From the sequence record OR327750.1: a stretch of 64,000 nucleotides of DNA, one strand, 5' to 3'. The notes below the pieces were generated by a model, which had not been told where the DNA came from, made no database searches, and saw only the letters and a program-made list of their open reading frames with translations. Position numbers and translations under genes: made by a program. Shown here one piece after another: positions 3,110 through 30,003 of this stretch; the first letter of the stretch is position 1; the number at the start of each line of letters is the position of its first letter. The stretch comes from Escherichia phage KK4.

Positions 3110-3392
3110 TTTCTTCTCGGTTAAATCGGTGTTTGCAATGACGACATTTATAACGAAGAATACTAGTCTGCCAATGAACTAATTGTACCTGTTCAGTACC
3201 ACACTTTGGGCAGTTTGGAACATTCTTAGAAGATTGCTCACGACGACTAACCATAGCCATAATGGCATCCCATGCTGGAGGTTTAAAGTCTAAATCGTCG
3301 GTAACTAGCAGCCCTTTATCAAACCCAGCGCATGGAGTCCATTCAGGAAAATCTGAAGCTTCGGCAATATCTTCTAATAAGCGCTTTTTCAT
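3096..3392 (-). CDS. hypothetical zinc-ribbon protein, 98 aa
   Basis: CPKCG...CRHCKHRF Cys4 motif at C-terminus. Confidence 0.5.
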
Positions 3393-4318
3393 TTCAGTAC
3401 CTCAATAGCATTACGTAAACCATTTGCTTTTGCATTAAGAGCTTTTAACAATTTGGTGTGTTCGGCAATCTGGGCTTCAACTTCAACCAGTCGAGATTTG
3501 AGATATTCGCGTTCTTCACTCAGGTTATCAGCCTTTTCTGCTTTAGGTTCTTTTACAACTGGCTTATATGTATTAGGGTTCTTCAGTTTAATTAGAATGC
3601 GTGAACTGTACAGCATTGAACCATTATCTTCGGTTTCGTCATACATTTCTACTACGTCCATGATTTTTAACATCATGCGGAGTTTATAAGACAACGAACG
3701 AATAGTTTTGTTGTGCTTATTAATTTCTCTAGAGTTCATGGTGCCGAGATTACGTGAGTAATAATAAGGAACCTGGATATTAATTAATACTGATGAACCA
3801 CCTGGCTTGTGTGTTACTTCATCAGCAATAACCCAATCCTTAACATGAACTGTATTTGTACGGTCATCGCCCGTGGTAAATAGTTTACGAGCATGCTTAA
3901 AAAGCATATTCACTTGGTCATTGAATTGACAAGCGAATTTATCAGCAAATTTAGTTTCGGGAATGGTAGATAACCAATCAGCCAAATGGGTCTTTTTAAC
4001 ATCGTTAACAATAGTAAATTCAACCAAATCGGTTATAGATGTCTCAGATTTAATGAAGCTCGGCTTCATAAAGTTTTTAATGTTATCACTAGCTACAGTA
4101 GAAGATAACAGACGAGAACGTTTAAACCATTGAAGCAAATTGCCTAACGAATGAGAATAAGCGTTTTGAGTATCTTTACAGATATGATTTTCCTGGCCAA
4201 CATATTGAAGGAAATCACGAAGAATATTATTGATTACTGCCCTGTGTCCTATCTGATAATTACGATGTTTAGTAATAAGACTGTCAAAATAATCAATATA
4301 ATGTTTACGAGTTTTCAT
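3389..4318 (-). CDS. hypothetical protein, paralog family member 1 (309 aa, C-terminal coiled coil)
   Basis: ATG start; begins MKTR like member 3; heptad-rich C-terminus. Confidence 0.6.
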   Translation of the reverse strand: MKTRKHYIDYFDSLITKHRNYQIGHRAVINNILRDFLQYVGQENHICKDTQNAYSHSLGNLLQWFKRSRLLSSTVASDNIKNFMKPSFIKSETSITDLVEFTIVNDVKKTHLADWLSTIPETKFADKFACQFNDQVNMLFKHARKLFTTGDDRTNTVHVKDWVIADEVTHKPGGSSVLINIQVPYYYSRNLGTMNSREINKHNKTIRSLSYKLRMMLKIMDVVEMYDETEDNGSMLYSSRILIKLKNPNTYKPVVKEPKAEKADNLSEEREYLKSRLVEVEAQIAEHTKLLKALNAKANGLRNAIEVLK

Positions 4319-4370
4319 GTTCTTCTCACTTTGTTAATGATTTGTACTCCGAGCCATCCTTGGCTTTAAA

Positions 4371-5372
4371 TTACTTAATTAACTGTAAAGCTTGTTCAAG
4401 ACGATCCAAGCGATTAACAGATTCTTCCCAAATCCTTTTAGCCTGCTCATATTCTTTCTGTGCTTTATTAGAAATTTCTAGAACTTCTTTATAAGCTTTT
4501 TCTAGTGCAATAACTTCTGGACGAATTTCTACCGATTCAGGTGAATCATCAAGATTATCCATTAGTTCCTCAAGGGTAGTTTCTTCTTTAGGGGTATTCA
4601 CAATTTCTTCACATTTTTGTTGATAAATTTCTTTATTAGTAGGTGAGTACGCGCACTTTACTTCACGAAGACTAACTACAATTTTATATCCTTCCCAACC
4701 GCATATATTCTTAAAAGGATAAGTATGAATATTTTCTACTGTTTCCATACAAAGTAATGCGGTCTCTAACTGACGAGTTATATCGCTAGCAATTGAGAAA
4801 AATTTATTAATGTTCTTTTGATTAGCTTCTGGTGTAAAAAATTCATAATTCACAAAAATAGCTGCTTTATTTTTATCAAGCTCATATTCTTTTATGATAA
4901 TCATATCAGAAGCCCAAGGATGGATTTGACGATAATCACCATAGCATAATTTAGAAGCTGATTTTAGAATTTGCTTCTTGAAAAGTCTAAAATTACTAAT
5001 CCAACGACGAGTAAAAATATTCTCAGGGTCTTCTTTATTATTAAGATGATAAGAATTAACATCACCGAACCAACTGTATCCTACTACATCTTTAGTTCGT
5101 TTAATTTCTTTCCCAAATTTACCAAGAATATCTTGATTAACTAAATATGAAAGAAGACGAGAACCTTTAAAAGTTTCCTTAATATCATCTTTATATTCGC
5201 GACTAGAAATTTTATGAACTTCATGAATAAATTTGCTGGAAGAAACAATACTTGCATCAGTATTATTGAGCCATTGATTGATAATGGAAATAACACTATT
5301 CTGACTAAACACAGGTTTAACTTTATCATCAATAACGCTATTGAATGATTTGATATATTCGTTACGAGTCAT
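4371..5372 (-). CDS. hypothetical protein, paralog family member 2 (333 aa from ATG with GAGGAG Shine-Dalgarno)
   Basis: Shares RxW..F(R/K)KQ(I/L)..ASxL core and C-terminal coiled coil with neighbours. Confidence 0.6.
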   Translation of the reverse strand: MTRNEYIKSFNSVIDDKVKPVFSQNSVISIINQWLNNTDASIVSSSKFIHEVHKISSREYKDDIKETFKGSRLLSYLVNQDILGKFGKEIKRTKDVVGYSWFGDVNSYHLNNKEDPENIFTRRWISNFRLFKKQILKSASKLCYGDYRQIHPWASDMIIIKEYELDKNKAAIFVNYEFFTPEANQKNINKFFSIASDITRQLETALLCMETVENIHTYPFKNICGWEGYKIVVSLREVKCAYSPTNKEIYQQKCEEIVNTPKEETTLEELMDNLDDSPESVEIRPEVIALEKAYKEVLEISNKAQKEYEQAKRIWEESVNRLDRLEQALQLIK

Positions 5373-5429
5373 ATTAATCTCCTCAGTAGAAAGTAAGAAC
5401 ATTATACCACATCCTTGTGGCAAAGTAAA

Positions 5430-6449
5430 CTAGTTTAGTGCATTTAGTGCATTGTTCAGTTTAGAACGTTGCTTCGTAAGATTTTTGACTTTTTCTTGTG
5501 CTTTTTCTAGCATCTTTTCAGCTTCTAGCACTTCATTGGTCGCTTTAACGAGTTCATCATCTACTGTCTTAAGAGACTTCTCAATCGCATCCGCGTGCCA
5601 TTTTTCAACAGGTTTAAGACTCGGATTTTCAATAGGAAGAAAATTCACTTTATTAAATTTCCATGCATCTTTATTACCTGAGCTATACATCCAAAATTTA
5701 GGATCGTTTGATGAGCAATTAGATAAATTTAAGTTATCTTGCACTTCCTGCTTTTTCTCTTGCGGGACTTCGTCCTTTCTCAAAAAATCGTATTTAAATG
5801 AAACGATCATATCAAGTTCATACGTTGTTGTATGTTCCCAATTTCGCTCAAAATGAGGTAAAATCTTAGATTGAACAGCGGCAACAACATCCATATACTT
5901 AAATGCTTCTGTCAACTGTGATTTAAGGCATTCACAAATTGAAAGAGAATTTTTTGTATTAGGTTTAAAGCTAATTCGTGCAGTTCTGTTATTTTCTTTT
6001 AATGGTCTTACTTCCATCTGAAGAGTATAACCATCAAATTTCAGGTTCTTTAAGTTAATATCAGAACCTTTTAATCGACTAGCCGTCGACAAAATTTGCT
6101 TTAATTGTTTACGGAATAGAGCAATAAATCTCCATTCAATACGATAATGATTTGGATTAAAAAATCCAGATGATAAATTAACCTTACTCTGACCAACGCC
6201 TTGAACAAATAGAGGATTTTTATAATCAATAGTTTTACCGAAATCGGTGAGCTGCTCACGAGCAGTCATTTGTGTAATATACCCCGCTTTACTAAAATGA
6301 CGTAACCATTCACTGCTATTCATATATTTAAAGTGAATATCACGATTAACTTTATCAGGGTCTAAATTATTTTGGCACAAAAATGTCATAACATCACGAG
6401 TATAGCTGGCATTACGAACCATATCTTCAATTTGAGAACGAGTTTTCAT
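5430..6449 (-). CDS. hypothetical protein, paralog family member 3 (339 aa)
   Basis: ATG with AAGGAA Shine-Dalgarno; MKTR N-terminus; C-terminal coiled coil. Confidence 0.6.
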   Translation of the reverse strand: MKTRSQIEDMVRNASYTRDVMTFLCQNNLDPDKVNRDIHFKYMNSSEWLRHFSKAGYITQMTAREQLTDFGKTIDYKNPLFVQGVGQSKVNLSSGFFNPNHYRIEWRFIALFRKQLKQILSTASRLKGSDINLKNLKFDGYTLQMEVRPLKENNRTARISFKPNTKNSLSICECLKSQLTEAFKYMDVVAAVQSKILPHFERNWEHTTTYELDMIVSFKYDFLRKDEVPQEKKQEVQDNLNLSNCSSNDPKFWMYSSGNKDAWKFNKVNFLPIENPSLKPVEKWHADAIEKSLKTVDDELVKATNEVLEAEKMLEKAQEKVKNLTKQRSKLNNALNALN

Positions 6450-14412: not shown

Positions 14413-14994
14413 CTAACCGAGCTTTTTAGTTAATTCATTCCAATGTTTTCTACACAAAGAAACATAAATTTCATCACCAATACAGATTTGATTACCTTCT
14501 TTAACTGGTGTTCCATCTTCCATTAATCGAGCTGTCATAATCGCTTTTTTACCACAATGACAAACTGCTTTTAGTTCAATAAGTTTATCTGCAATTGCCA
14601 AAAGTTCTTTAGAACCTTCAAATAATTTTCCAGCGAAATCAGTCCTTAGTCCATAAGCCATAACAGGAACATTATATGTATCGACAATTCGGCTTAATTG
14701 ATGTACCTGTTCAGTTTTTAAAAACTGAGCTTCATCTACAAATACACAATGAATATCTTTTTGTGCTTCAGCCCATTTATAGAACTCAAAAATATCCATA
14801 TCATCCGTAATAATATTCGCTTCCTGTTTAATTCCAATGCGAGAAACGACTTCACAGACAGAATCGCGAGTATCAATAGCAGGCTTAAGAACTAATACAC
14901 TCATTCCGCGCTCTTTATAATTATGCGCAGCAGTCAAAAGAGAAGCAGATTTTCCAGCATTCATTGCTGCATAAGTAAAAATTAAACTCGCCAT
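14413..14994 (-). CDS. tk: thymidine kinase
   Basis: 193 aa; P-loop MNAGKS and CxxC...CxxH zinc motif typical of type II thymidine kinase. Confidence 0.9.
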   Translation of the reverse strand: MASLIFTYAAMNAGKSASLLTAAHNYKERGMSVLVLKPAIDTRDSVCEVVSRIGIKQEANIITDDMDIFEFYKWAEAQKDIHCVFVDEAQFLKTEQVHQLSRIVDTYNVPVMAYGLRTDFAGKLFEGSKELLAIADKLIELKAVCHCGKKAIMTARLMEDGTPVKEGNQICIGDEIYVSLCRKHWNELTKKLG

Positions 14995-15003
14995 ATCACC
15001 TTC

Positions 15004-15189
15004 TTAAAGCGTATTCACATAAGCTATTAATTCGTTTTCTTTCTTATCAAACCGGTCAGCAAATTCTTCTTGCTGATCGGGAGATAGCGGGCCATATTCA
15101 TCATAAAAGGTGTTTGCTTCTGTATGCTCATCTAGAAGTTCATGGATAAGCTCAAACAATTTATCTTTTTGTTCTTTACTCAGACTCAT
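15004..15189 (-). CDS. hypothetical acidic protein, 61 aa
   Basis: Minus ORF in tk-regB interval. Confidence 0.45.
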   Translation of the reverse strand: MSLSKEQKDKLFELIHELLDEHTEANTFYDEYGPLSPDQQEEFADRFDKKENELIAYVNTL

Positions 15190-15359
15190 ATATTAATTTC
15201 CAGAAGTTTTAAAATAATTCGCTTTTGCTTAAATATTTCCATAGTTAAATGATCAGTATCTTTTTGACCAATTCCGATGGCAAAACCTTTATTAACAGCG
15301 AGTTCAATTAAATTATCAAGCTCACGTAACACTTCATATTGTAACTCAGAACTATTCAT
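15186..15359 (-). CDS. hypothetical protein, 57 aa (below ORF-track cutoff)
   Basis: Manual translation MNSSELQYEVLRELDNLIELAVNKGFAIGIGQKDTDHLTMEIFKQKRIILKLLEINI; ATGA overlaps at both ends. Confidence 0.35.
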   Translation of the reverse strand: MNSSELQYEVLRELDNLIELAVNKGFAIGIGQKDTDHLTMEIFKQKRIILKLLEINI

Positions 15360-15562
15360 TTTGGTTTACCTTCTTTAACAAAATCGGGATAAGGATAAAA
15401 TCCTGAATAAAATCCTTCACCTTTATGATTAATGCATCCTTTATTAGAGCAATAGCACCAATAATCGAAATCACAAGCCATTTCATCATTGCATAAAGCA
15501 AAAACAACTGGCCATTTACACTTTTCACAATGTGCATTTTTAAGAATGCTAGTTTGGCTCAT
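15356..15562 (-). CDS. Cys-rich putative zinc-binding protein, 68 aa
   Basis: HCEKCKW...CNDEMACDFDYWCYCSNKGC; ATGA overlap with upstream stop. Confidence 0.45.
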   Translation of the reverse strand: MSQTSILKNAHCEKCKWPVVFALCNDEMACDFDYWCYCSNKGCINHKGEGFYSGFYPYPDFVKEGKPK

Positions 15563-15771
15563 AACCATGTAACCTTTAAGCAATATTCTTCTACATGCTG
15601 TTTACGACCTTTCTTATCAATAAAGGTATATTCAACGAATGTTCCAATATAGTCTTTATCTACATCATGTGGACTATTAATTGGGCATTTAGTACGGCAA
15701 ATGCGTTCCCATTGACGAATAATTTCTGCTTTGTTTTTAGGATCAAACGGATGCGGGTAATGTGCTTTCAT
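15559..15771 (-). CDS. hypothetical protein, 70 aa
   Basis: Overlaps 3-prime end of macro-domain gene by 29 nt in another frame. Confidence 0.4.
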   Translation of the reverse strand: MKAHYPHPFDPKNKAEIIRQWERICRTKCPINSPHDVDKDYIGTFVEYTFIDKKGRKQHVEEYCLKVTWL

Positions 15772-16222
15772 AATCCACCACTATTAAATCAATATCAGGA
15801 GTAAACATGTCGATTAATTTAGAAACCTTATCCCAATCACCGCCAGCAATACCACAACCTATGCGTGGAATGTAAATTACCGGTTTAAACAAAAGGGTTT
15901 CTGCCTGTAGATTTAATTCTATCATGCAGTTTACTAAAGCACCATAATCAAAATTAGGACCCGGTTCGTATTGCGTATACAAATTATAGCACATACTAAA
16001 TCCTGTAGGATTATGTTTAAAAACAATAGACATATCGCCTAATTTATCACGAGAACCGTACTCGGTAGTAGTTTTATCTATTTCTAAAATTTTGGGATAG
16101 GCTCTTGCTAATTGACCTGCTACGCCAGAGCCCATTGTGTGGAAGCAATTGCACCCGTGCGCAATAATATTACCTTGAAGAAATAGGGCGACAATATCGC
16201 CCTTGATATATTTTACAATCAT
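15743..16222 (-). CDS. macro-domain protein (ADP-ribose binding/processing fold)
   Basis: GDIVALFLQGNIIAHGCNCFHTMGSGVAGQLARAYP and PRIGCGIAGGDW resemble macrodomain glycine-rich phosphate-binding loops. Confidence 0.6.
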   Translation of the reverse strand: MIVKYIKGDIVALFLQGNIIAHGCNCFHTMGSGVAGQLARAYPKILEIDKTTTEYGSRDKLGDMSIVFKHNPTGFSMCYNLYTQYEPGPNFDYGALVNCMIELNLQAETLLFKPVIYIPRIGCGIAGGDWDKVSKLIDMFTPDIDLIVVDYESTLPASV

Positions 16223-17105: not shown

Positions 17106-17567
17106 TCATTGAGTTTTAATTACTGCTTTAGAAGCCTTTCCTGGTAAACGACGACTGTTGATAATTGCCATCCTGCATTGAAGTGACGGGTCTTTGAACT
17201 TCTCGTTAGGTTTACAAACTGTAAATCCAAGCCAAAGATTTCCATCTGTGATTTCTAAACGCCCAGGACGATATTCAATCCCATCAATAAAATCCTCATC
17301 AATATCAGGGCGTGGAGGCATACTCAAGAATTCATTAACTTCTAAAACATGGTCTTTTATTTTATGGAATAATTCAAAAACATATGTCTCATCAATCTCC
17401 CGTTGAATTGCACGATCAAGAAGATGCTGAGAATATTTTAGATGAAACGATGAGACCCCTGCTGCTTTTGATGCCTCACGAATCTCATTGTTAATTTGAC
17501 GAAACTCCGACTCAAAGTGACGACGGAGCTTATTTCGACGGATAAAAACTTCTGTGTTGATAGTCAT
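17106..17567 (-). CDS. regB: endoribonuclease RegB
   Basis: 153 aa, MTINTEVFIRRNKLRRHFESEFRQINNEIREASKAAG... matches T4 RegB from memory; consensus early promoter upstream. Confidence 0.9.
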   Translation of the reverse strand: MTINTEVFIRRNKLRRHFESEFRQINNEIREASKAAGVSSFHLKYSQHLLDRAIQREIDETYVFELFHKIKDHVLEVNEFLSMPPRPDIDEDFIDGIEYRPGRLEITDGNLWLGFTVCKPNEKFKDPSLQCRMAIINSRRLPGKASKAVIKTQ

Positions 17568-17594: not shown

Positions 17595-17624
17595 ATTATA
17601 CCACAGTCAAGAGGAAAAGTAAAC
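17595..17624 (-). promoter_or_regulatory. early promoter of regB
   Basis: GTTTAC-N18-TATAAT (consensus -10), ~28 nt upstream of regB ATG. Confidence 0.65.
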
Positions 17625-20771: not shown

Positions 20772-21227
20772 TTAAAAGAGGCTGTTCATTATTCGGTAAA
20801 GTGAAGGACCCATCACATATTGCCACTGAGTACGAGGAATAAGAGCAAAAGCATCCATCTCTGGAATCATAACGCCATCTTTATTTTCAAAATAAGACTC
20901 GCAATGGCAATTTCTAAACATCTCATGCTTTACTGGAATCGTATAATAAAATAACTGTAAGTCTTTATTACTAGAATATTTAAATACACCTAAGTCTTCT
21001 AGAAGGTCTGGATTATAATCGATAAAACCAGTCTCTTCTGAGCATTCTCTTTTTGCAGCTTCCAGTGCATTCAAATCAGAACTTTCTACACGCCCCTTTG
21101 GAATATCCCAGCGATGTGCAATCATTCCAGGTTTACGAGAACCGGTAACTCGTCCCATAAATAAATCTTTATCTTCTGTCATAAAGATAATACCAGCTGA
21201 TAATGTTTTCATTTTAATTTCCTGCAT
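20772..21227 (-). CDS. nudE: Nudix hydrolase NudE
   Basis: 151 aa; Nudix box GRVESSDLNALEAAKRECSEETG. Confidence 0.85.
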   Translation of the reverse strand: MQEIKMKTLSAGIIFMTEDKDLFMGRVTGSRKPGMIAHRWDIPKGRVESSDLNALEAAKRECSEETGFIDYNPDLLEDLGVFKYSSNKDLQLFYYTIPVKHEMFRNCHCESYFENKDGVMIPEMDAFALIPRTQWQYVMGPSLYRIMNSLF

Positions 21228-26157: not shown

Positions 26158-26233
26158 TGGTCGAGGCAGTAGGGATCGAACCTACGACCTAGGACTTAGA
26201 AGGTCCTTGCTCTTCCTTCTGAGCTATGCCCCG
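26158..26233 (-). tRNA. tRNA-Arg (anticodon UCU)
   Basis: Manual cloverleaf: 7-bp acceptor, T-loop TTCGATC, anticodon loop CTTCTAA, encoded CCA. Confidence 0.8.
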
Positions 26234-26237
26234 TAAT

Positions 26238-26313
26238 TGGGGTGACCGATGGGAGTCGAACCCATGACTACGAGAATCACAATCTCGAGTTCTACCAACT
26301 GAACTACGGCCAC
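26238..26313 (-). tRNA. tRNA-His (anticodon GUG)
   Basis: Manual cloverleaf: anticodon loop TTGTGAT, discriminator C73, encoded CCA; position -1 is not G. Confidence 0.7.
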
Positions 26314-26426
26314 ATTAATACCTACTCCAACAATCAAGATGTCTTCACACGAAATTAAGAGAAGAGTGATCAGTTCAACCCTATAATCGCGTCAAGTAGA
26401 TATTAATGTGACAGTTGTCACAAATT

Positions 26427-26501
26427 TGGCGGACGTGATAGGATTCGAACCTATAACCAATCGCTTAACAGGCGATCGCTCTGCCATTGAGCTACACATC
26501 C
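26427..26501 (-). tRNA. tRNA-Asn (anticodon GUU)
   Basis: Manual cloverleaf: anticodon loop CTGTTAA, T-loop TTCGAAT, encoded CCA. Confidence 0.75.
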
Positions 26502-26505
26502 AAAT

Positions 26506-26592
26506 TGGTGGGGAGTGATGGAGTCGAACCACCCGAGTCGCAATGACAATGGATTTACAGTCCACACCGCTACCTCTACGGGATAACTCCCC
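26506..26592 (-). tRNA. tRNA-Tyr (anticodon GUA), type II with long variable arm
   Basis: Manual cloverleaf: anticodon loop CTGTAAA, 87 nt, encoded CCA. Confidence 0.7.
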
Positions 26593-26605
26593 TTAATTCT
26601 TAATT

Positions 26606-26680
26606 TGGTGGCCCTGGGTGGAATTGAACCACCATCTGGCGATTATGAGTCGCTTGCTTGAACCTTCCAGCTACAGGGCC
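26606..26680 (-). tRNA. tRNA with CAU anticodon (Met, or Ile2-type AUA reader)
   Basis: Manual cloverleaf: anticodon loop CTCATAA, T-loop TTCAATT, encoded CCA. Confidence 0.7.
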
Positions 26681-26681
26681 T

Positions 26682-26757
26682 TGGTGCTGATTGACGGAAT
26701 CGAACCGCCGACCTTCTCATTACAAGTGAGTTGCTCTACCTACTAAGCTAAATCAGC
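26682..26757 (-). tRNA. tRNA-Thr (anticodon UGU)
   Basis: Manual cloverleaf: anticodon loop CTTGTAA, perfect 7-bp acceptor, encoded CCA. Confidence 0.8.
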
Positions 26758-26762
26758 AAAAC

Positions 26763-26852
26763 TGGCGGAGGCGATAGGATTTGAACCTATGAGTCGCCGG
26801 AGCGACTGCCGGTTTTCAAGACCGGTGCATTAAACCACTCTGCCACGCCTCC
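26763..26852 (-). tRNA. tRNA-Ser (anticodon UGA), type II
   Basis: Manual cloverleaf: anticodon loop CTTGAAA, long variable arm, encoded CCA. Confidence 0.8.
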
Positions 26853-26854
26853 AG

Positions 26855-26928
26855 TCTCCATACAAGGATTTGAACCTTGGACCTCCTGATCCCAAATCAG
26901 GCGCTCTACCAAACTGAGCTACACGGAG
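26855..26928 (-). tRNA. tRNA-Pro (anticodon UGG), CCA not encoded
   Basis: Manual cloverleaf: anticodon loop TTTGGGA; 3-prime end abuts tRNA-Ser by 2 nt (dimeric precursor arrangement as in T4). Confidence 0.8.
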
Positions 26929-26938
26929 TAAATTAAAT

Positions 26939-27012
<74 letters not shown>

Positions 27013-27017
27013 AAATT

Positions 27018-27104
27018 TGGTGCGAGAAGTGGGACTCGAACCCACAAGGAAATCATTCCGCAGCATTTTAAGTGCTGTGCCTTTACCAATTTGACCATTC
27101 TCGC
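27018..27104 (-). tRNA. tRNA-Leu (anticodon UAA), type II
   Basis: Manual cloverleaf: anticodon loop CTTAAAA, long variable arm, encoded CCA. Confidence 0.8.
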
Positions 27105-27105
27105 G

Positions 27106-27178
27106 CTGGGAATAAAGGACTCGAACCTTTGCATCCTGGAATCAAAATCCAGTGCCTTACCAACTTGGCTAATTCCCA
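27106..27178 (-). tRNA. tRNA-Gln (anticodon UUG), CCA not encoded
   Basis: Manual cloverleaf: anticodon loop TTTTGAT; abuts tRNA-Leu (Gln-Leu dimeric arrangement as in T4). Confidence 0.8.
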
Positions 27179-28184: not shown

Positions 28185-28214
28185 ATAGTATCACAACTAA
28201 AACCCTATGTAAAC
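28185..28214 (-). promoter_or_regulatory. T4-type early promoter cassette
   Basis: GTTTAC-N18-TACTAT upstream of 61-aa membrane protein ORF. Confidence 0.55.
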
Positions 28215-28232
28215 AACTTTGTGAAATATTTA

Positions 28233-28520
28233 TTACAAAAGATTTTTAGCAATAATCTTGAGATGTGCCGCAGAAATGTGTTTAGCTTTAAACAACGCAG
28301 TTTCTTCAGCAGGAGAGATAATGATTGTAGCACCATCCTTTTTAGCAGACCACCCATCACCTAGGTAAACAGTACCTTTGATTTCTTCGCCATCAACCAA
28401 ACTAATCATTGGTTTACCTTCTCGTCCTTTATTTGCTTTAATAACTTCAGAAGTAAGAGTAGCTTCAGTAATAGTAGAAACCGGGGTAGTTGTAGAAGTA
28501 AATTCTTTGAAAGTTTTCAT
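28233..28520 (-). CDS. ipI: internal protein I (capsid-packaged, injected)
   Basis: 95 aa; MKTFKEF... capsid targeting sequence; matches T4 IPI from memory. Confidence 0.85.
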   Translation of the reverse strand: MKTFKEFTSTTTPVSTITEATLTSEVIKANKGREGKPMISLVDGEEIKGTVYLGDGWSAKKDGATIIISPAEETALFKAKHISAAHLKIIAKNLL

Positions 28521-28592: not shown

Positions 28593-29289
<697 letters not shown>

Positions 29290-29290
<1 letters not shown>

Positions 29291-30003
29291 TATAGTACCT
29301 TTAGTGTATTTTTAATTTTAGAAAAAAGTTCTTCAAGAGAACCATCGTTTGTAATTACTAAATCGCCATCACGAATTGGCAATCCAGCTTCTGTAATATG
29401 AGTATCATTGGATTTTTGACCAGGACGAACTACATGAATTACTGTAGCACCCATCGCCCTAGCCGCATCCATTTCATGATCTTGACGAGTATCAGGAACG
29501 ATATAATAATCATAACCTGAGTTAAATTTATCAAGATAATCTAAAGCAAATAATTTTACCCAATACATGCGGTCGAAGTTATTAACAATCAAATCCGTAC
29601 CTAGGGCTTGCATCAGACGACGGACTGACCATTGATCTTCAATATTATTTATAACGTCAGCAATCTTGTTAAATGCTACGAAATTAACTGCGTCATCAAA
29701 AACAAACACACCTTTAATTGGGCTTTTACTATTAAGATAGCAAAATGCTTGTTCCATAATCGTAATTACTTCTAATTTAGTCAGATTTAAATTAGTCTCA
29801 CGATCATAGTCAATTCCTTCAAACTCTTTACGAGTTAAGCAAGGATAGTCAGTGTTTGCTGCAAATACACCCCATGCATAAGCCAATGCATCCTTAATAG
29901 GACCAGCAAGTTGATATTTAACTGCAGAATAATTATTCATGATAAAATCTGCAGTAGTATCTTTTCCACTACGCTTTACACCACTTAAAAAGATTAGTTT
30001 CAT
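29290..30003 (-). CDS. 1: deoxynucleoside monophosphate kinase
   Basis: 237 aa; P-loop GVKRSGKDT; matches T4 gp1 from memory. Confidence 0.9.

Follow-up and report, generated by a model that had tools for sequence, protein, structure and literature searches.

The analysed window, a 64,000-nucleotide stretch of Escherichia phage KK4 DNA, encodes a protein of the macrodomain fold and class that occupies the same slot as the phage T4 gene tk.4 and retains a conserved active site. We consider it likely that this positional orthologue of T4 Tk.4/AdfM is an early macrodomain enzyme that reverses the ADP-ribosylation of DNA by DarT2 without lysine chemistry. In the proposed mechanism, Tk.4 would be produced early in infection. 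The host toxin DarT2 would attach ADP-ribose to thymidines of single-stranded phage DNA, and Tk.4 would strip it from them, such that replication could proceed on hosts carrying DarTG2. The reaction would probably not follow the lysine chemistry of DarG and TARG1 but the lysine-free mechanism proposed for SCO6735, and the invariant Q84 would position substrate and water. By analogy, we infer that the window allele would be protective like the T4 allele and that its mechanism would be the enzymatic de-ADP-ribosylation of DNA. Gene, domain and likely role are all on record: the annotation dates from 2006 and the role from genetics published in 2025.

The tk.4 reading frame begins with ATG and comprises 159 codons on the minus strand, and its coordinates in the ORF list were re-checked by translation. 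It is flanked by tk (14413-14994) and regB (17106-17567) and belongs to a run of short, overlapping ORFs of the same strand. Both the 159-amino acid ORF and the run of small genes between tk and regB had been proposed in the first-pass annotation of this DNA, as had a GDIV motif and glycine-rich loops; the translation contains KGDIV at residues 7-11, HGCNCFHTMGSGVAG at residues 22-36 and IGCGIAGG at residues 121-128. The coordinates of the gene, its active-site segments and the neighbouring signals are listed in the table.

Table. Features of the tk.4 gene and its surroundings, in positions of the window.
Feature	Position	Strand	Basis
tk.4/adfM-type CDS, 159 aa, single-domain macrodomain	15743..16222	-	ORF list, Pfam Macro, GADU22 annotation, T4 synteny
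ATGA overlap of the vs stop codon and the tk.4 start codon	16219..16222	-	read from sequence
Loop 1, H22-G-C-N25-C-F-H-T-M-G-S-G33-V-A35, ADP-ribose binding/catalytic loop	16118..16159	-	family alignment
Strand end N80-L-Y82-T-Q84	15971..15985	-	profile alignment to TARG1/BT1257, column counts
Loop 2, P119-R-I-G-C-G-I-A126-G-G-D-W130, diphosphate-binding glycine-rich loop	15833..15868	-	alignments
Sigma-70-like promoter, TTTACT-17-TATAAT with TG, 5' of regB	17595..17623	-	consensus match only

The ATGA overlap suggests that vs and tk.4 are co-transcribed and possibly translated in a coupled manner, and at its 3' end tk.4 shares 29 nt with tk.3. For the regB-vs.1-vs-tk.4 run, the sigma-70-like sequence upstream of regB is the closest candidate for an early promoter, a match to be read in the light of a scan in which promoter-like matches in the region were fewer than in shuffled controls. 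Just within the 5' end of tk.4, an 8-bp GC-rich hairpin (16185-16203) was flagged as terminator-like on both strands, and a 'terminator' is annotated at this site in some related GenBank records. The folding of the hairpin was not significant (z = -1.7) and its presence is probably incidental.

Several independent searches identified the tk.4 product as a macrodomain. The Pfam Macro profile (PF01661) matched residues 22-136 over profile positions 2-117 of 118 with an E-value of 6.6e-8 and 32.9 bits, above the gathering cut-off of 22. The protein also matched PHROG 335 (E=3.7e-71), and tblastn retrieved homologues in 2758 phage records; the gene is therefore not a chance ORF. By sequence and profile, the nearest solved structures in the PDB were BT1257, Poa1p, SCO6735, M. 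tuberculosis DarG and TARG1. An AlphaFold model built from a 68-sequence homologue alignment reached a pLDDT of 94 and a pTM of 0.89, against a pLDDT of only 33.7 when a single sequence was used as input. The model has the three-layer alpha/beta/alpha macro fold, and its best structural matches were macrodomains without exception. When it was compared to the PDB with Foldseek, TARG1, Poa1p, BT1257 and DarG ranked first with TM values of 0.70-0.75, and the closest neighbours were TARG1/ALC1/DarG/Poa1p-like rather than MacroD, viral Mac1 or PARG. Based on the profile matches, the PDB neighbours and the Foldseek ranking, the protein is a macrodomain of the TARG1/ALC1/DarG/Poa1p-like class. The macrodomain identity proposed from the letters alone thus agrees with the Pfam search, the PDB sequence and profile searches and the structural model; the macro match and the glycine-rich loops, whose absence had been named as grounds for giving it up, are both present.

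Outside one indel at 28195-28486, the window is 99.97-99.99% identical to the genome of Escherichia phage GADU22 (Tequatrovirus), where tk.4 is already labeled 'macro domain-containing protein'. The GADU22 genome has only one macrodomain gene, the tk.4 gene flanked by vs and tk.3. In T4, tk.4 occupies this slot under the annotation "phosphatase; contains A1pp phosphatase motif", and a 2006 paper already reported that tk.4 orthologues match A1pp (macro) (PMC1524935). The function of T4 tk.4 was addressed in a preprint of November 2025 (bioRxiv 10.1101/2025.11.20.689424). When a T4 transposon library was grown on a DarTG2-expressing host, only tk.4 came up as a significant hit, and T4 became sensitive to DarTG2 when the gene was cleanly knocked out. 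On a plain K-12 host T4 could do without tk.4, and its loss had an effect only with DarTG2. It was named adfM (anti-DarT factor Macrodomain), and an enzymatic removal of ADP-ribose from DNA was suggested. The knockout phenotype fits the observation that T4 without adfA and adfN still resists DarTG2 (PMC11825919). The DarT-reversal role put forward in the first-pass annotation is in line with these genetics of the T4 orthologue, obtained with the T4 allele at 59% identity, while the degradation of immune signals, put forward alongside it, found no support. Two points weigh against a direct transfer of the proposed function: in the accessible part of the preprint the support for adfM consists of genetics and structural similarity, and T2, T4 and T6 all carry the T4-type allele and not the window allele. 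Our literature search retrieved no experiment on the window-type allele, and in the CmdTAC paper macrodomains are named solely in the reference list.

The active site was analyzed in an alignment of 68 family sequences. Loops HGCNCFHTMGSGVA (residues 22-36, with the trailing G) and PRIGCGIAGGDW (residues 119-130) were near-invariant across these homologues, and H22, G23, N25, C26, G33, A35, D49, N80, Y82, Q84, P119 and W130 were invariant, with Q84 conserved in 68 of 68 sequences. In profile alignments Q84 was placed opposite TARG1 K84 and A126 opposite TARG1 D125, and BT1257 also had a glutamine at the Q84 position. In SCO6735, Gln85 sits where the catalytic lysines of DarG (K80) and TARG1 (K84) sit (PMC9411070). 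The equivalence of Q84 and SCO6735 Gln85 is transitive, as it combines our TARG1 and BT1257 alignments with the published alignment to TARG1 K84; through these two steps the Tk.4 family is predicted to be a lysine-free, Gln-type enzyme family. SCO6735 efficiently removes thymidine-linked ADP-ribose from DarT-modified DNA, and its activity was abolished in the Q85A variant (PMC9411070). Further, H22 aligned with the histidine of the Poa1p HSCNC motif, and N25 aligned with N23 of PhiKZ gp104, a residue whose exchange (N23A) reduced the de-ADP-ribosylation activity (PMC13309987). The strict invariance of H22, N25 and Q84 favors catalysis over plain sequestration, and for this reason an inhibition of DarT2 by binding without catalysis is highly improbable. 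The same low probability applies to a binding or degradation of Thoeris signals (cADPR isomers, His-ADPR), as no link between Tk.4 and Thoeris was present in the literature searched.

Among the characterized relatives, SCO6735 of Streptomyces coelicolor (5E3B) and BT1257 (2FG1/2AFC) are Gln-type, ALC1-like proteins with ∼26-30% identity to the window protein, and the SCO6735 loop 2 motif PRIGCGLAGGTW is near-identical to loop 2 of the window protein. The SCO6735/BT1257 subclass differs by a longer 'mobile loop' after the glutamine (PMC9411070), which the window protein lacks. Compared with the Tk.4 family profile, BT1257 has six extra residues at this point. Adpp-type proteins have a 7-residue insertion after the glutamine that Tk.4 does not have; in the alignment to an Adpp-type protein, the window and T4 proteins accordingly show a 7-column gap, and six of the seven columns are filled in BT1257. 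As the extended 'mobile loop' is credited with the high DNA activity of SCO6735, its absence from the tk.4 protein counts against DNA as the substrate. The DarG antitoxins (T. aquaticus 5M31/5M3E; M. tuberculosis 5M3I) carry a catalytic lysine, whereas the window protein carries Gln84. They also have a DarT-binding domain at the C-terminus and a darT gene alongside, and the window gene has neither, its neighbors being vs and tk.3. Membership in the DarG family was rejected on these grounds and on the score with the NCBIfam DarG model NF048014, which was 28.9 bits (cut-off 250); the PADLOC DarG model gave 28 bits. A bacterial homologue from Pelagimonas is an orphan without a DarT neighbor. Together, this orphan homologue and the wide misses of the DarG models mean that phage tk.4 is not simply a captured DarG antitoxin.

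A second phage macrodomain, PhiKZ gp104, also bears the name AdfM. This DarG2-like protein of a chimallivirus counters DarTG2 and removes thymidine-linked ADP-ribose in vitro (PMC13309987). Its relationship to the window protein is remote, with a BLASTP E-value of 1e-3 over 33 residues and an hhalign value of 96.6%. In the aligned region where DarG and TARG1 carry the catalytic lysine, gp104 has a PTK (Thr-Lys) motif and the window protein has glutamine, although hhalign and MAFFT place this lysine one or two residues away from Q84 and the placement is not reliable. The remoteness of the protein with proven DNA activity, and its PTK motif in place of glutamine, again weigh against the proposed function of tk.4. 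The name AdfM was given independently to PhiKZ gp104 (PMC13309987) and to T4 Tk.4 (10.1101/2025.11.20.689424); it denotes shared function and not close homology, and is a source of annotation confusion.

The closest biochemically characterized phage relative of the window protein, Adpp of Vibrio phage Gary, is an ADPR-1''P phosphatase, which counts against the DNA-directed function. Purified Gary Adpp converts ADPR-1''P to ADPR and lets NARP1 overcome aRES (10.64898/2026.01.28.702374). The tk.4 product could thus mainly be a phosphatase of the Poa1p/Adpp kind, instead of or besides acting on DNA, and the ADPR-1''P would come from RES-type NAD+ phosphorylases (aRES defence) or from RNA 2'-phosphotransferase reactions; this is the main alternative, though we consider it unlikely. 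Poa1p is among the top sequence and structure matches, and the label 'phosphatase, A1pp motif' of T4 tk.4 is long-standing and recurs as 'phosphatase' in PHROG 335. Achelous gp176, a Vibrio phage protein 98.7% identical to the verified Gary Adpp, is 39% identical to the window protein (E 2e-26) and shares with it the HxCNC, N.Y.Q and IGCGxAGGDW motifs. Because an Adpp-type protein at 39% identity has the same three motifs, including the glutamine, homology alone cannot tell whether the window protein is a DNA glycohydrolase or a metabolite phosphatase, and it may do both. Net charge and pI did not separate the DNA-acting from the metabolite-acting relatives. The genetic setting, however, differs. 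Adpp depends on the three-gene NARP1-AP operon, in which any single deletion abolishes the anti-aRES effect (10.64898/2026.01.28.702374), and tk.4 lies outside such an Adps-Namat operon. No homologues of Adps or Namat were found in the GADU22 genome (best tblastn E-values 0.43 and 1.4); with these partners missing, we rejected NARP1-AP function as the main explanation. The neighbors of tk.4 are vs and tk.3. The window protein is also nearer to T4 Tk.4 (59%) than to Adpp (39%), and DarTG2 sensitivity is the sole phenotype reported for a Tk.4 (10.1101/2025.11.20.689424). In Vibrio phage Achelous, a three-gene NARP1-AP operon at 3132-6138 encodes an Adps-like protein, the macrodomain gp176, which is a member of the Tk.4 family, and a Namat-like protein. 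RefSeq calls both Tk.4 and Achelous-type macrodomain proteins 'phosphatase'.

GADU22 encodes two Alt-like and two ModA/ModB-like ADP-ribosyltransferases, and Tk.4 might act on the products of such enzymes. It would then temper or recycle the phage's own ADP-ribosylation (Alt, ModA, ModB) by taking ADP-ribose or RNA-linked ADP-ribose off host proteins, a role that we regard as very doubtful. In its favor, SCO6735 and TARG1 de-modify proteins as well (PMC9411070). The T4 ADP-ribosyltransferases modify arginine, and macrodomains of the TARG1/ALC1 class are not known to cleave the arginine linkage; this linkage counts against such a role. Against it stands also the dispensability of tk.4 on plain K-12 and its requirement only with DarTG2 (10.1101/2025.11.20.689424).

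The tk.4 gene of the window is a divergent allele in a backbone that otherwise resembles T4. The same vs - tk.4 - tk.3 slot is occupied in T4 (Tk.4/AdfM, NP_049723), and the backbone is otherwise 94-100% identical. The window protein and T4 Tk.4, by contrast, are only 58.7% identical, compared to 97% for rI, 100% for rI.1, 99.5% for Tk and 94% for Tk.3, and 96.5% for Vs, 99.4% for Vs.1 and 99.3% for RegB. At the DNA level, identity to T4 was 46-78% at ∼15750-16200, inside the tk.4 ORF, and 94-100% on both flanks. The allele replacement is thus restricted to the tk.4 ORF and has sharp boundaries. Both proteins are single-domain, with 155 aa in T4 and 159 aa in the window, the latter having a 4-residue C-terminal extension. 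Residues 1-40 are more alike (34 of 40 identical), and the twelve family-invariant residues are kept in both allele types. Loop 2 reads IGCGIAGGDW in the window protein and IGAGIGKGNW in T4 Tk.4; AGG is the majority form in the family (63-65 of 68 sequences), and GKG is rarer. At an identity of at least 90%, the window-type allele was present in about 312 deposited phage genomes; the T4-type allele was present in 224 records at at least 90% and in 159 at 80-90%.

A second block replaced relative to T4 is located at 15000-15550, in the tk.1/tk.2 region. Three ORFs there (15004-15189, 15186-15359 and 15356-15568) match PHROGs 653, 3452 and 2306, whose function is unassigned, and the third encodes a Cys-rich, possibly zinc-binding product (CEKCKW...CNDEMACDFDYWCYCSNKGC). 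The indel at 28195-28486 is the only large difference from GADU22, with 292 nt in the window against 556 nt in GADU22 (126011-126566), and lies close to the gene of an 'internal (core) protein'; the window thus stems from a very close relative of GADU22 and not from that very record. The minus strand also carries a NudE-like nudix hydrolase gene (20772-21212), whose product might in principle use up free ADP-ribose that the macrodomain releases, and a gene for the anti-CBASS nuclease Acb1 (28857-29312). According to the GADU22 annotation, 11 tRNA genes (Arg, His, Asn, Tyr, Met, Thr, Ser, Pro, Gly, Leu, Gln) are located at 26161-27178 on the minus strand; T6 has fewer tRNA genes than GADU22 in the counterpart region.

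The proposed function bears on macrodomain counter-defence, that is, on how lytic phages survive toxin-antitoxin systems that ADP-ribosylate DNA, and tk.4 would be relevant to the choice of therapeutic T4-like phages against DarTG2-carrying E. coli. As the tk.4 family spans DNA-repair-like and metabolite-phosphatase roles, it offers a case for studying substrate specificity in lysine-free macrodomains. It is possible, if somewhat unlikely, that the tk.4 slot is a hotspot of allele exchange and that the window allele differs in specificity from the T4 allele; at least two deeply diverged versions (∼59% identity) occur in near-identical Tequatrovirus backbones. If so, the targets of the window allele could be other DarT2 variants or a different ADP-ribose adduct, or its product could combine de-ADP-ribosylation of DNA with ADPR-1''P phosphatase activity; the tk.4 locus would then document a continuing arms race and not a single fixed function.
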